Positions 24,117 to 26,824 of a stretch of 64,000 nucleotides of DNA are shown here, piece by piece; the stretch's first letter is position 1; every line of letters begins with the position of its first letter. Origin of the DNA: a virus (taxonomy: Duplodnaviria > Caudoviricetes); IMG/VR virus record IMGVR_UViG_3300020112_000486, positions 6,651-70,650 of that record; one strand, 5' to 3'. The notes under the pieces are model-generated. The model worked only from the letters and a program-made list of their open reading frames with translations, searched no databases and had not been told where the DNA came from. The translations under genes were made by a program, and so were the position numbers.

Positions 24117-24986
24117 ATGATGAATTTTAAAGATCCGCGTCCTGTGCCGCCATCTCCGGCTCCATACGATCCTAAGCGTCAGCCGGATCCACAGCCAGGC
24201 AATTATTGTGCAGCCCAAGATGGCTTTATGGCTGCTCATCGTATTCAGAATGTAGCTGAACTGCGTGCTTATATCAAAAGACAGCTTGGTTCTCCTGTTA
24301 TTTGTGTTGAAATTTCTGACGAACAGCTAGATGATGTTATCCGCGATACTGTTCAGTATATTCAGCGCTATTATCTAGGTCAGGGTAATTACAGCGATTA
24401 CCTTATTATGGAATTGCAGCCAGGTGTTTCCAAGTATAAATTGTGTCAGGAATTAGAGTCAGTTGTTGACTTCAAGACTTCCAATTATTTTGGCGGCATT
24501 AACGAACTTTTCACCGTTCCGCATGCTTTGCTATATGACCAGGTTATGGGCATGAACTGCTGGCAGGGTAACTGCTTTGGTAACTCAGCTTCCTATGGTA
24601 ACATTTTGGGTAACTGGAAGGCAACCTTGACATGGCTTGCTGAAGCTGACGAAATGTTTGGTGAACATTATGTTGTTCGCTACAATGAAAAAGAAAAAGA
24701 GCTTGAAGTTATGCCTCCGCCAAAAACACCAGTTAAGGGTATGCTGAAGGTTTACAAGCGTCAGCGTTCAGAAAAGATTTTCAATGACTGGATGTTCAAA
24801 AGAATGGTTGTTGCTGCTGCAGGTATGGTATGGACCAACGCCCTTAGAAAATATCAGTTAGCAATTTCTGGTGGTGGTTCCTTGAACGCTGACTCACTTT
24901 ATACAACATACAAAGAAAACTGGGATTGGTGCGTGGAACACATTGAACTTGAAAGTCCTAATGGGCATTGTTTCGCCGTCGGCTGA
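24117..24986 (+). CDS. gp13: Neck protein (T4 gp13-like)
   Basis: LRAYIKRQLGSPVICVEISDEQLDDVI...WTNALRKY...GGGSLNA. Confidence 0.85.
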   Translation: MMNFKDPRPVPPSPAPYDPKRQPDPQPGNYCAAQDGFMAAHRIQNVAELRAYIKRQLGSPVICVEISDEQLDDVIRDTVQYIQRYYLGQGNYSDYLIMELQPGVSKYKLCQELESVVDFKTSNYFGGINELFTVPHALLYDQVMGMNCWQGNCFGNSASYGNILGNWKATLTWLAEADEMFGEHYVVRYNEKEKELEVMPPPKTPVKGMLKVYKRQRSEKIFNDWMFKRMVVAAAGMVWTNALRKYQLAISGGGSLNADSLYTTYKENWDWCVEHIELESPNGHCFAVG

Positions 24987-25023
24987 TTTTTTGATGCTAA
25001 CTTTATCATATTTTTGTATCCTT

Positions 25024-25057
25024 TATAAATAAATTAGACGAACTGGTAATTCGTCTA
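25024..25057 (+). promoter_or_regulatory. Late promoter + hairpin B (loop CTGGTAA)
   Basis: TATAAATA 25024-25031; TAGACGAA/TTCGTCTA perfect 8-bp stem. Confidence 0.7.
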
Positions 25058-25067
25058 TAAATAAAGG

Positions 25068-26093
25068 ATGCAAAACATGGGTAAAAATGTAGATTTTATT
25101 ATAGCAGTCAAGTCACAAGCTGACTTGACTTTTGCGAAAACAACATACAGTAATAAAACAAAAATTCTCGTTCATTGTTCTGATTGTAATATACCGCTTT
25201 TAAAAGCGCTGAAGAAAATTGATAAAAATGATACTTTAGACGATTTGCGGTGTAGACGCTGTGGTATAAGACACGCTGTGTTTCAAAAATATGGCTGCGT
25301 AAATGTTTTTCAGTTAGCAACAGTAAAAAATAAGTCAAAAGAAACATCATTTCAAAACTGTGGTTTTGAATATGCGTCACAGTCACCCGAGTTCCGAGCA
25401 AATGTAAAAAATACATGTATGCGGAAATACGGTGTTGAAAACATTACTCAATCTGAATTTTTTAAAGAAAAAGCACGTGAAACTAGACTTTTGAAAAATG
25501 AAGGACAATATAGGAACAAAACTGAAATAGAAAAACAGCAAGAAACCTGCCTTAGTAAATATGGCACAAAAGCGTGCTGGAATTTACCAGAAGTTAGAAA
25601 GACACAAAAAGCTACATTTCTCGCAAGATACGGCAAAACTCATTTTTTACATACAGAAAAATATATTGATGTAATGACTGAGAAATATGGTGTAAGTAAT
25701 CCTGATTATTCGCATGAAATTAGAACAAAAATGCGACAAAAGTATCTGTATAAAAACGTCGGATTTGATAGCAGCTGGGAATTAGCACTTTATATTTGGT
25801 TAGAAGATTCATCCGTGCCGTTTATATACCAACCACCTGGTATATCATACATGCATAATAATGAGCCGCATACTTATTATCCTGATTTTTTACTAGCCGA
25901 TGATACTTATATAGAAATAAAAAATCCTGCATTATTATTGAGGATGCAAAATGAAACATCACTAGAACATTCAAAATACCTATGTATGATTAACAACAAT
26001 GTACAAATTATATCAAACTGTGATGAATATCTTAAATATGTTACCCATAAATATGGTAAGAATTATCTAAAAAGTTTTAAAAAGGACAAGTAG
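25068..26093 (+). CDS. Free-standing homing-endonuclease-like protein (TxLxKYG repeats + PD-(D/E)xK nuclease)
   Basis: Repeats TCMRKYGV/TCLSKYG/TFLARYG; FDSSWELALYIW...YYPDFLL...YIEIK; C-terminus KYGKNYLKSFK shared with 3345. Confidence 0.75.
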   Translation: MQNMGKNVDFIIAVKSQADLTFAKTTYSNKTKILVHCSDCNIPLLKALKKIDKNDTLDDLRCRRCGIRHAVFQKYGCVNVFQLATVKNKSKETSFQNCGFEYASQSPEFRANVKNTCMRKYGVENITQSEFFKEKARETRLLKNEGQYRNKTEIEKQQETCLSKYGTKACWNLPEVRKTQKATFLARYGKTHFLHTEKYIDVMTEKYGVSNPDYSHEIRTKMRQKYLYKNVGFDSSWELALYIWLEDSSVPFIYQPPGISYMHNNEPHTYYPDFLLADDTYIEIKNPALLLRMQNETSLEHSKYLCMINNNVQIISNCDEYLKYVTHKYGKNYLKSFKKDK

Positions 26094-26154
26094 GTTTACA
26101 TGTTTTGCCTACCTGGAGACTCTTTACCAGAGAGTCTCCTAACTTTTATAAATA
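26084..26154 (+). promoter_or_regulatory. Hairpin module A (loop TTACCAG) + late promoter
   Basis: GGACA-GTAGG/CCTAC stem, GGAGACTCT/AGAGTCTCC stem, CTAAC, TATAAATA 26147-26154. Confidence 0.7.
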
Positions 26155-26158
26155 TGAT

Positions 26159-26824
26159 ATGGATGGTAAAATGCTATTATCTGAAGCAAATCAAATACTT
26201 AATTCGGCTGGGTATAGCCTTATCTGTGAGGAGTTTGAAAAGGTAACTCCTGAAATCCTAGATAAGGTTACTCAGCGTGTTTCTGACCATATTACTCGTG
26301 TTAAGCATTTCTATAATGTGTTGCTTAATAGTAATATGATTCCTGCTGAATACAAAAATACAGCAAGCGTAATGAAACATGACCGAGACAAGCTAGATCC
26401 GCGTAATCTTAAAAGACAAGCATTGCGTTACTGCTATACTGAAGAAGAAATGACACCTGAAATTAAGCATGAAATTAACGCAGTGGTTCATGAACACGTA
26501 ACTGCTAATAAGCATCACGCTGAATACTGGTGGTCAGGTGACTGGAAAGACAGGAATCAAGACTGTACATCAATGCCGCTTGAATACATTTATGAAATGA
26601 TGGCTGATTGGGCTGCTACTGCGGAAGAGCGTGGAACCTCGTTAGTCAAATGGTATAAAGACGGCGTAGTTAATGTTGGCGGTGTTCATTGGAAATTTAC
26701 TGATGAGGCTGCTGCTGAAATTGCTAAATGCGTCAATTTCCTTAAAGACAAAATTGACCCATCAATGAAAAGAAACTATGGGCTAACACAAATCGCATCA
26801 TTGACGGCGATGTTAGCTAAATAA
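26159..26824 (+). CDS. HD-like (DUF5662-type) protein with leader tag
   Basis: LLSEANQILNSAGY leader; H..RV, KHDRDK, HEH...KHHAEYW, MPLEYIYEMMADW. Confidence 0.6.
   Translation: MDGKMLLSEANQILNSAGYSLICEEFEKVTPEILDKVTQRVSDHITRVKHFYNVLLNSNMIPAEYKNTASVMKHDRDKLDPRNLKRQALRYCYTEEEMTPEIKHEINAVVHEHVTANKHHAEYWWSGDWKDRNQDCTSMPLEYIYEMMADWAATAEERGTSLVKWYKDGVVNVGGVHWKFTDEAAAEIAKCVNFLKDKIDPSMKRNYGLTQIASLTAMLAK

Follow-up and report, generated by a model that had tools for sequence, protein, structure and literature searches.

A recent insertion lies between two head and neck genes of an uncultured T4-like phage, within the window, i.e. the whole 64,000-nucleotide stretch of DNA that was analysed. The inserted block, which we call locus 2, carries a nuclease gene of the free-standing homing-endonuclease type, late promoter boxes facing into and out of the block, and two RNA modules whose hairpin loops are complementary to each other and to the start site of the nuclease gene. 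We consider it probable, though far from assured, that locus 2 is a recently mobile, self-contained cassette of ~1.18 kb with a rearranged two-loop RNA lock, acting by 3' fold-back or in trans, and with an outward promoter. Locus 2 is a rearranged member of an uncatalogued, recurrent family of homing-endonuclease leaders.

The cassette and its insertion site

The features of the locus are listed here in coordinates of the window.

24117-24986, + strand: gp13-like neck / head-tail adaptor gene, the upstream host gene (phrog_211 match, 3e-17)
24994-24999, + strand: orphan ATGCTA, left copy of the 6-bp direct repeat; it is what remains of the start codon region of DUF5662 where the cassette went in
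25000-26176, + strand: inserted homing-endonuclease cassette, 1,177 bp (a boundary of 24994-26170 is equally good)
25002-25026, + strand: 5' anti-TIR arm, in read-through transcripts only; listed as inverted repeat I3 by the repeat finder
25024-25031, + strand: late promoter box P1, TATAAATA, read from the sequence, in the 3' end of the 5' arm
25035-25057, + strand: hairpin B, with stems TAGACGAA (25035-25042) and TTCGTCTA (25050-25057) and loop CTGGTAA (25043-25049)
25056-25063, + strand: second TATAAATA (P2), read alongside L086 and L087
25061-25079, + strand: translation initiation region (TIR) of the nuclease, with SD AAGGA (25064-68) and AUG (25077-79), the predicted target of the 5' arm and module A
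25077-26093, + strand: free-standing homing-endonuclease-like gene, 338 aa, with Zn-ribbon, DUF7487 repeats and PD-(D/E)XK domain
26084-26146, + strand: module A, comprising GGACA (26084-26088), hp1, hp2 and the tail CTAAC
26090-26112, + strand: hp1 of module A, with 5' stem GTAGG including the nuclease stop codon; anti-TIR 26099-26108, extendable to 26114
26115-26139, + strand: hp2 of module A, with stems 26115-26123 and 26131-26139 and loop TTACCAG (26124-26130)
26147-26154, + strand: late promoter box P3, read from the sequence, outward-facing toward the DUF5662 gene
26155-26170, + strand: leader and SD region that the cassette newly provides for DUF5662, missing from the empty allele
26171-26824, + strand: DUF5662 gene, the downstream host gene (Pfam DUF5662, 1.9e-16); its first 6 nt are the right ATGCTA copy

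The nuclease ORF starts at ATG 25077 (or 25068) and ends with a TAG stop at 26091-26093. Its product matches Pfam DUF7487 (7e-26) and, weakly, Phage_endo_I, and falls in PHROG families annotated as homing endonuclease. The profile of the nuclease matches T7 endonuclease I at 1e-4, and D270, E280 and K282 are invariant across its alignment. Two properties that characterize free-standing homing endonucleases are found here, i.e. a nuclease gene with an intact catalytic motif placed between gp13 and DUF5662, and presence/absence polymorphism at the same site among close relatives. Judged by its sequence the cassette is of this type, with cleavage of the empty allele as a putative activity.

The site exists in at least three states. 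The first is an empty allele, found in at least three contigs of ~97%-identical phages (encoding P0121, P0141 and P0152; the DUF5662 protein of the window is 97% identical to P0121). It was deduced from the N-termini of the contigs' proteins, not from DNA letters. These three proteins start as the +1-frame 3' end of gp13 fused to MLLSEANQ; the empty allele reads ..SPSANF followed by MLLSEANQ.., while that frame of the window gives ..SPSADFLML. The deduced junction would be GGC-TAA-TTTT-ATGCTATTA, i.e. the gp13 stop codon, 4 nt and then the ATG of DUF5662. An earlier note on this DNA had expected a single TATAAATA to lie between gp13 and DUF5662 in an empty site, but the three contigs have only the 4 nt; the promoter at the position of P3 is missing from them. 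The second is the occupied allele, also present on the contigs of P0147, P0149 and P0153 with a nuclease that is 97% identical. The translation across module A, compared as one translated frame of 22 codons, is identical in these other occupied contigs. The third allele is that of L222, which has a different nuclease in a canonical cassette at the same site, with flanks of 90-95% DNA identity to the window. Homology between the window and L222 stops at the gp13 stop codon and restarts 4 nt before the DUF5662 ATG, and the L222 cassette is bounded by a 10-bp direct repeat TTTACATTAA. The gp13-like protein of the window is 97% identical to that of L222, and has 60-63% identity to the upstream genes of L001-L003.

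The ends of the insert are marked by the 6-bp repeat ATGCTA, at 24994-24999 and 26171-26176, and the left boundary precedes P1 by 25 nt while the right one follows P3 by 16 nt. Since the ATGCTA boundaries are outside both promoters, P1 and P3 are cargo and not target sites. Integration at late-promoter boxes, as the earlier note had proposed, is thus contradicted for this insertion; empty alleles whose boundaries are unrelated to the promoter repeats are among the outcomes that the note itself had named as refuting it. On the sequence comparison, the unit at ~25000-26176 is a single 1,177-bp insertion.

Searches for relatives elsewhere gave little. Scanning the nuclease and DUF5662 proteins singly against viral contigs found no relatives, the DNA of the region had no match among GenBank phages in near and distant modes, and the DUF5662 protein (P0146), used as the query in protein mode, had no match either. 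The donor locus was not found; the best match to the locus-2 nuclease in the L222 genome is only 35% identical.

Complementary loops in a family of leaders

Direct reading of the sequence bears out exactly what had been described before, i.e. hairpin B, module A with its overlap of the nuclease stop codon, the 7-nt complementary loops and both promoter boxes. The longer promoter string CTTTATAAATA spans 25021-25031, and the string CTTTTATAAATA at 26143-26154 contains P3. The unit is indeed flanked by these direct repeats, but what they have in common is short, 10 identical bases (TTTATAAATA) or, at 87% identity, 15 nt. P2 is probably a mere variant of TCTtTAAATAAAGGAG, the conserved spacer that separates B from the SD, and any transcript initiated there would lack an SD.

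The hp2 loop TTACCAG and the B loop CTGGTAA are exact reverse complements over 7 nt. We have observed a second pairing that is absent from the earlier note. The hp1 loop CATGTTTTGC (26099-26108) exactly complements the 10 nt GCAAAACATG (25070-25079), which comprise the spacer and the start codon. Module A is located 1.02 kb 3' of these targets, past the nuclease stop codon. Downstream, TGGTAAA at 26164-70 complements the hp2 loop plus one base. The two hairpin regions are more stable than their shuffles (z = -4.1 and -3.2).

We compared cognate with non-cognate combinations of 24 independent modules, scoring both pairings with a cut-off of 6 nt. Both reached at least 6 nt in 24/24 cognate pairs, against 5/552 non-cognate pairs, so chance complementarity is excluded. 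Locus 2 scores 10 nt for hp1-TIR and 7 nt for hp2-B, and no non-cognate pair reached 10 for hp1-TIR. An exhaustive scan for 6+6-nt complementarity over distances of up to 3 kb proved uninformative (49,177 matches, with 27,650 in shuffles). The region is AT-rich, and 1.8 kb of it contain six further perfect inverted matches, each 10-11 nt long.

Canonical modules with differing but matched loops are found in L001, L002, L003, L008, L081, L085-L088, ~15 further loci and L222. L085 and L088 have an identical B hairpin, and L086 and L087 have a variant with a compensated loop. The compensation involves a single change, from CTGGTAA/TTACCAG (window and L085) to CCGGTAA/TTACCGG (L086 and L087), with B otherwise identical. 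The loop complementarity described in the earlier note is therefore conserved among homologues, in all 24 modules and with compensatory changes. A search of Rfam at E up to 1 found no match for the leader family.

Locus 2 shares with the canonical two-loop leader a GGACA(G) start, two hairpins and the tail CTAAC-TTT(T)ATAAATA. In both, the hp1 loop is complementary to the RBS or start and the hp2 loop to the loop of a downstream hairpin; the loop sequences are different in every copy, yet they always match. The difference lies in the order. Canonical members have A, late promoter, B, RBS and ORF, with A upstream of the ORF, whereas locus 2 has promoter, B, RBS, ORF, A and promoter. The permutation that had been noticed (B-ORF-A) is real, and locus 2 is the only case of A downstream of the ORF among ~50 distinct modules and ~100 nuclease loci examined. 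Because it is the sole permuted copy, selection for the 3' position of A is not demonstrated. L022 was considered as a second case, having a 12-nt anti-TIR just past the stop codon, but the hairpin that contains it includes a duplicated TIR-like copy and is no module A; the element is probably a tandem remnant. Neither of the orphan modules, in L123 and L135, has a cognate partner within its locus.

Predicted control of the nuclease start site

The place usually taken by module A upstream of the ORF is held at locus 2 by a long hairpin of the I-TevI type that buries the SD and spacer, with P1 in its 5' arm. Nucleotides 25012-25026 pair with 25061-75 (15 bp, one G-U), and 25002-25007 with 25081-86 (6 bp). 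For the read-through leader (24996-25092) the MFE is -27.1 kcal/mol (z = -5.86), with 0/200 shuffles as good, and folding predicts that in read-through RNA the SD and start region are paired in a stable stem. P1 overlaps the 3' end of the arm. We take its transcript start to be ~25037, from what is known of T4 late promoters, and RNA beginning there folds with the TIR open. Hairpin B is accordingly placed at the predicted 5' end of P1 transcripts. The sequence CTAACTTTAT at 24997-25006 was examined as the tail of a deleted upstream A. However, its CTA belongs to the duplicated ATGCTA and the remainder pairs within the 5' arm; its origin as a remnant is only a possibility.

The homing-endonuclease genes of T-even phages (I-TevI, I-TevII, I-TevIII, segB and Aeh1 mobE) have hairpins that sequester the RBS and contain an embedded late (or middle) promoter, and endonuclease genes can carry promoters for downstream genes (PMC2988022). 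In control of the I-TevI type, read-through RNA hides the SD and start in a stem, and the late promoter embedded in the arm frees the RBS. Locus 2 matches this exactly over 25002-25086, but adds, at the gene's 3' end 1 kb further downstream, a bipartite two-loop anti-TIR element. The canonical relatives depart from the I-TevI type in another way, blocking by loop-loop and loop-RBS contacts and not by one continuous hairpin.

The possible action of the 3' element was modelled by thermodynamics alone, with kinetics, ribosomes and pseudoknots outside the models. Module A folds with -22.9 kcal/mol. In the modelled full-length late mRNA, 25070-78 pairs with 26100-08 at a probability of ~0.79, and the SD pairs with 26112-14. 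The probability that the spacer and AUG are unpaired is 0.63 without A and 0.15 with A, compared with 0.40-0.64 for eight shuffled versions of A. The loop duplexes have energies of -11.6 and -7.4 kcal/mol, and the duplex of A with the 5' UTR has -32.2, against -17.1 +/- 3.2 for shuffles (0/500 as good). hp2 was flagged as terminator-like. According to these models, the completed mRNA probably closes its own start site by folding back. A may nevertheless be redundant for the nuclease, given that the 5' arm is there, and be kept solely as a terminator/promoter module.

A related closure is described for the hok mRNA of plasmid R1, where in tac/fbi fold-back a 3' element pairs with the 5' TIR (PMC9841398, citing Thisted 1995 and Franch 1997). 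As with hok, the product of the locus-2 gene is potentially harmful to the host, and its full-length mRNA is predicted to be closed by pairing of a 3' element with the 5' TIR. Locus 2 differs in that it has no sequence or family relation to hok and no known antisense RNA partner or evidence of 3' processing, and its contacts are hairpin loops. The earlier note had offered pairing between the 5' and 3' UTRs as one of two readings, and that half is supported by the complementarity and the thermodynamic modelling. It had also called this a system that it did not recognise; what we find resembles instead an I-TevI-type hairpin lock plus a fold-back of the hok tac/fbi kind.

The expression of a homing endonuclease has to be high enough for it to spread and low enough to spare the phage. 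In T4 this is known to be solved by a simple hairpin, which a late promoter bypasses. In the mechanism that we propose, read-through RNA from gp13 would be translationally silent by virtue of the 5' arm, following I-TevI-type logic, and P1 transcripts would start at hairpin B with the start site open. Once RNA polymerase had passed the stop codon, module A would be able to fold back. The hp2 loop would then kiss the B loop, and the SD-to-AUG region would be paired with the hp1 loop and its flanking sequence. After termination at hp2 the A RNA could work in trans too. The fold-back would shut translation, limiting the nuclease to a short co-transcriptional pulse in the manner of the 3' fbi of hok mRNA. 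The 3' module, with its terminator-like hairpin, P3 and new SD, would insulate and re-express the DUF5662 gene, since the cassette has uncoupled it from gp13. More tentatively, and with rather less than even confidence, we suggest that the two-loop lock is position-independent. It could act as part of the mRNA's 3' end, or in trans as a small RNA released from there, closing the start after the transcript is complete, and would be heritable with the cassette.

Origin of the permuted order and what it implies

The most likely source of the permuted order is a tandem or circular version of the canonical cassette that existed before the insertion, since the inserted block already includes the 5' arm. 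A rather unlikely alternative, though one to be taken seriously, is that the 3' A no longer regulates the nuclease. It would have been left by out-of-register resolution of a tandem or circular canonical cassette and kept as terminator, P3 and SD for DUF5662, with a complementarity that is merely young. The 5' arm alone does form a complete I-TevI-type lock, hp2 has its terminator-like score, and locus 2 is the sole permuted case found. Moreover orphan A-promoter modules persist without a nuclease in L123 (after gp13) and L135, and nuclease ORFs that abut the A of the next cassette are common in tandem arrays (L099, L117, L195 and L204). However, the 21-bp arm inside the insert means that the design is older than the insertion, yet at least 17 complementary positions of A are all intact. 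The nuclease stop codon is part of the hp1 stem, and in the ensemble model it is A specifically that closes the TIR. The closest homologue of the nuclease, P0002 (52% identical), ends in ..KKDRQF, as a same-frame reading into a GGACAGACAG.. module would. A search of viral contigs with P0002 gave only loci of 48% identity or less, one on the contig of L081, and P0002's own contig was not among them.

The other half of the earlier reading fares much worse. It held that the element excises as a circle with an A-TATAAATA-B junction and integrates at resident late-promoter boxes, and we regard it as very improbable. The gene order is a unit-length circular permutation with TTTATAAATA on both sides, the ORF-to-A junction (AAAAAG joined to GACA) is that expected from a circle or tandem of the canonical unit, and in L057/L058, the closest relative by gp13 in IMG/VR (75% identical), gp13 is followed immediately by a single TATAAATA. 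There is also a precedent in the PeSL cassettes of T4-type phages, promoter-terminator units that recombine into mini-circles (PMC2839356). But the ~4-nt empty allele in the three or more ~97%-identical phage contigs is promoterless, and the ATGCTA boundaries exclude both promoters from the junctions. Nor do the boundaries of canonical relatives fall at promoters, the presence/absence boundaries of L066 compared with L070/L071 being where A starts and where the ORF ends. The promoter copies share just 10 nt, and the loop complementarity is an inverted and not a direct repeat, and so is unable to drive excision. The PeSL cassettes themselves are short stem-loop and promoter units flanking accessory ORFs in variable regions, with modular shuffling and proven small circles (PMC2839356, PMC4122927). 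Locus 2 resembles them in having short composite stem-loop-plus-promoter cassettes beside an accessory ORF. Yet PeSL promoters are of the early sigma-70 type and those of locus 2 are T4 late-type TATAAATA boxes; sigma-70-like sites at locus 2 (14) are not above the shuffle expectation of 10.4 +/- 3.6. In addition, PeSL empty alleles keep one chimeric cassette whereas that of locus 2 keeps none, and complementarity of a loop to a neighbor's RBS, as at locus 2, is not described for PeSL. We give still less credence to a transposon-like insertion, in which the flanking 6-bp repeat would be a target-site duplication and a perfect 10-nt inverted repeat close to both ends (I18; 25004-13 and 26150-59) the termini, even though the L222 cassette is also flanked by a direct repeat, of 10 bp. 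The two copies of the inverted repeat are subterminal and, at 4 and 11 nt from the ends, out of register, and chance 10-mers are frequent because the region is AT-rich. The lengths of the flanking repeats vary between cassettes (2, 6 and 10 bp), so that microhomology-mediated joining fits better than a fixed staggered cut. The sole ORF is of the PD-(D/E)XK homing-endonuclease type; terminal inverted repeats, a fixed target duplication and a transposase, by which a DNA transposon or insertion sequence is recognized, are all lacking at locus 2.

We return to the cassette with a rearranged two-loop lock. Three alleles, i.e. empty, permuted, and canonical with a different nuclease, at one site in ~97%-identical phages make a clean case of homing-endonuclease turnover, and the cassette illustrates the supply of promoters both for itself and for the gene that it uncoupled. 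The two-loop lock is widespread in uncultured T4-like phages and has no Rfam entry. Locus 2 is a natural rearrangement experiment on this covarying lock, with the cognate element 1 kb downstream, definable boundaries and an empty allele. If the 3' copy is active, the lock acts over a long range or in trans, and would newly exemplify 5'-3' mRNA closure as a means of controlling phage genes. If the proposed mechanism is true, it would be a phage-encoded fold-back timer like hok fbi, restricting a homing endonuclease to a co-transcriptional pulse.

Organization of locus 2 and its nuclease

The window covers 64 kb of the 70.65-kb contig of an uncultured T4-like phage, and contains about 25 late-promoter boxes of sequence TATAAATA. 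On reading the sequence directly, the coordinates that the earlier note assigned to locus 2 were all correct. The features are as follows.

24117-24986: gp13 neck gene (phrog_211 match)
25024-31: late promoter box P1, TATAAATA, 3' of gp13
25035-57: hairpin B, loop CTGGTAA
25056-63: P2, a second TATAAATA-like box; the SD (AAGGA) comes next
25077-26093: nuclease ORF, 338 aa, with its TAG stop inside the 5' stem of hp1
26084 onward: module A, with GGACA at 26084, hairpins hp1 (26090-112) and hp2 (26115-139, loop TTACCAG), then the tail CTAAC
26147-54: late promoter box P3, TATAAATA, into which module A runs directly
26171: start of the DUF5662 gene

A single base separates P2 from the conserved spacer between B and the SD in L087 (L-numbers denote related loci on other contigs). 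A transcript from P2 would be without the SD, and P2 is therefore not counted as a working promoter. CATAAATA at 26046-26053 has one mismatch from the late promoter box and sits within conserved KYG codons ~40 nt 5' of module A; several relatives (e.g. L025) have a perfect TATAAATA at this motif. If active, the CATAAATA box would lead to a short RNA made of module A alone.

The encoded protein combines DUF7487 repeats with a PD-(D/E)XK domain at its C-terminus, which is related to T7 endonuclease I; its catalytic D, E and K do not vary among the homologues. The PHROG families that it matches are annotated as homing endonuclease. It is 35% identical to the nuclease of locus 1 elsewhere in the window, and unrelated to that of locus 3.

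Predicted pairing of the nuclease start with its 5' arm and module A

The 7-nt complementarity between the loops of hp2 and hairpin B claimed by the earlier note is real and cognate. The loop of hp1, CATGTTTTGC, is moreover exactly complementary to GCAAAACATG (25070-79), the spacer together with the start codon. Scans based on alignments of the nuclease and of gp13, and on two DNA patterns, yielded ~100 nuclease loci related to this one and ~50 distinct modules of type A. Wherever the module is real, loop 1 matches the RBS/start of its own gene and loop 2 matches the loop of hairpin B, and the loop sequences differ in almost every copy. For 24 independent modules, both pairings reach at least 6 nt in 24/24 cognate vs 5/552 non-cognate combinations; locus 2 scores 10 and 7 nt. 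L085/L088 have a hairpin B and a loop pair identical to those of the window, and in L086 and L087 CCGGTAA is paired with TTACCGG, a compensated single change. An Rfam search of the leader gave no match. Among all these modules and loci, that of locus 2 is the only one with its partner upstream of module A, and on this comparison its permuted order appears to be new.

TTTACCA (the hp2 loop plus one base, 26123-26129) also complements TGGTAAA at 26164-26170, directly 5' of the DUF5662 start codon, a match to be read against the 13/552 non-cognate control pairs that reach at least 7 nt. Module A might also mask the DUF5662 start on read-through transcripts.

The usual place of A is taken by an arm of 25 nt before P1, complementary to the translation initiation region. 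Nucleotides 25012-26 pair with 25061-75 (15 bp, one G-U) and 25002-07 with 25081-86, in a stem that encloses hairpin B and buries the SD and spacer. The read-through leader folds with −27.1 kcal/mol vs −10.8 ± 2.8 for shuffled sequences (z −5.86). In the predicted RNA starting just after P1 only hairpin B remains, and the start site is open. This matches the arrangement known from I-TevI, I-TevII, I-TevIII, segB and Aeh1 mobE (PMC2988022).

The ensemble was modelled, using pseudoknot-free models, for an RNA of 1,114 nt that begins at the predicted P1 start and ends with A. Nucleotides 25070-78 pair with 26100-08 with a probability of ~0.79, and the SD bases AGG with 26112-14. The mean unpaired probability of the spacer plus AUG is 0.63 if the RNA ends before A and 0.15 with A; eight shuffles of A in its place give 0.40-0.64. 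The loop duplexes have energies of −11.6 and −7.4 kcal/mol, the loop-loop kiss itself being beyond pseudoknot-free models. The earlier suggestion that 5'-3' pairing loops the mRNA is supported in silico. The combination of hp2 and TAACTTTTAT was flagged as terminator-like, and so the nuclease mRNA could end in module A, or A could be released from that mRNA. The functional analogue of such a 3' module A would be the tac/fbi fold-back of hok (PMC9841398).

Alleles between gp13 and DUF5662

The DUF5662 protein belongs to a 90%-identity cluster of 20 members. Three members on different contigs, the related proteins P0121 (32 kb), P0141 (48 kb) and P0152 (2.9 kb), are N-terminally extended, reading ..MGIVSPSANF directly before MLLSEANQ... 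The extension results from translating the final 45 nt of gp13 in the +1 frame, in which the window gives LNLKVLMGIVSPSADF, and this leaves only ~4 nt between the gp13 stop and the DUF5662 ATG. These phages would thus have the gp13 stop (TAA), ~4 nt (TTTT) and then the ATG, and the protein N-termini point to an empty allele without nuclease gene, hairpins or TATAAATA.

The left junction of the window reads TGA-TTTTTTG-ATGCTA-ACTTTATC. The orphan ATGCTA at 24994-99 matches the opening six bases of the DUF5662 ORF and recurs at the true start (26171-76), so that the 1,177-bp insert would span 25000-26176 and have a 6-bp direct repeat at its ends. Within it are P1, B, the nuclease gene, A, P3 and, for DUF5662, a new leader of 16 nt. 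A perfect 10-nt inverted repeat, TATCATATTT / AAATATGATA (25004-25013 and 26150-26159), lies 4 and 11 nt inside the two cassette ends; in read-through RNA it might act as a closing helix, or it may be a chance match, the sequence being AT-rich.

The occupied allele recurs on other contigs: in P0147 and P0149 the read-through N-terminus has the same translation of the A/P3 region as the window, and P0153 is the nuclease with 97% identity. L222 provides a third allele, readable as DNA, on a 266-kb NCBI MAG contig (JAZLKX010000052.1) that is binned as a 'Bacilli' MAG and is evidently a mis-binned phage genome. Its gp13 and DUF5662 are 97% and ~98% identical to those of the window, and the flanking DNA keeps 90-95% identity as far as the gp13 stop and regains it 4 nt 5' of the ATG. 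The cassette at L222:1095-3000 is a different one, of canonical A-promoter-B order, and its loops match their own partners (9 and 6 nt); it encodes a 583-aa nuclease/methyltransferase-like protein and is flanked by the 10-bp direct repeat TTTACATTAA. L001, L081, L002 and L003 are canonical orthologues at the same site, and L070/L071 and L067/L074 are nuclease-less alleles whose deletion begins with A and extends to the end of the ORF.

Several further arrangements were observed. L064:4346-4552 is a decayed cassette after gp13, in which the two hairpins of A are fused to the last ~25 nuclease codons, with promoter, B and most of the nuclease gene deleted. An orphan A plus late promoter follows gp13 at L123:880-1190, one base different from the intact L089 cassette, and another lies on the minus strand of L135 (1926-1989 on the reverse complement); neither locus has a hairpin B, nuclease gene or cognate partner anywhere within it. 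L022:3296-3360 has, 2 nt 3' of the nuclease stop, a 12-nt perfect complement of its own RBS/start, which forms a hairpin with a near-copy of the start region, and is possibly the remnant of a tandem cassette. L099, L117, L195 and L204 are tandem arrays, where an upstream nuclease-like ORF terminates at the GGACAG that opens the next cassette's A, or a few bases into it. The closest gp13 relative in IMG/VR (L057:4397-4424, 75% identical) is without the nuclease gene and DUF5662; directly after its gp13 stop there is one TATAAATA, and then the prohead-protease gene.

Possible origin and role of the permuted module

The earlier note proposed a circle that integrates at late-promoter boxes, and predicted exactly one TATAAATA in empty alleles. 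The empty allele appears to have none and the ends of the insert are the ATGCTA repeats rather than promoter boxes, which goes against integration at promoters; we regard it as very improbable, and a transposon-like reading of the insert as slightly more so. A circular or tandem precursor is still a reasonable origin of the permuted order, with PeSL mini-circles a proven precedent for circular forms (PMC2839356), and the ORF-to-A joint AAAAAG-GACA is the product expected from such a form. Any such event predates the present insertion because the element replacing A upstream is already inside the insert.

On balance we lean towards module A being a functional 3' lock. The arm lies inside the insert, which makes the design older than the present insertion, yet no complementary position of A has been lost; the nuclease stop codon is part of hp1. 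The closest homologue, P0002 (52% identical), ends ..KKDRQF, as expected from reading AAAAAG-GACAGACAG.. in the frame of the window, and could be a second permuted case. That module A is a relic, or acts as an insulator only, is a less probable reading that nevertheless deserves some weight: the permuted module is a single example, the nuclease may have no need of A given the 5' arm, A-promoter orphans survive at other loci that have no nuclease gene, and the sequence is AT-rich with several chance 10-11-mers.

Locus 2 belongs, in rearranged form, to an uncatalogued leader family of homing-endonuclease genes, and joins a textbook I-TevI-type 5' lock to a cognate 3' element and a promoter that faces outward. 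The defined empty, permuted and canonical alleles add to its usefulness.
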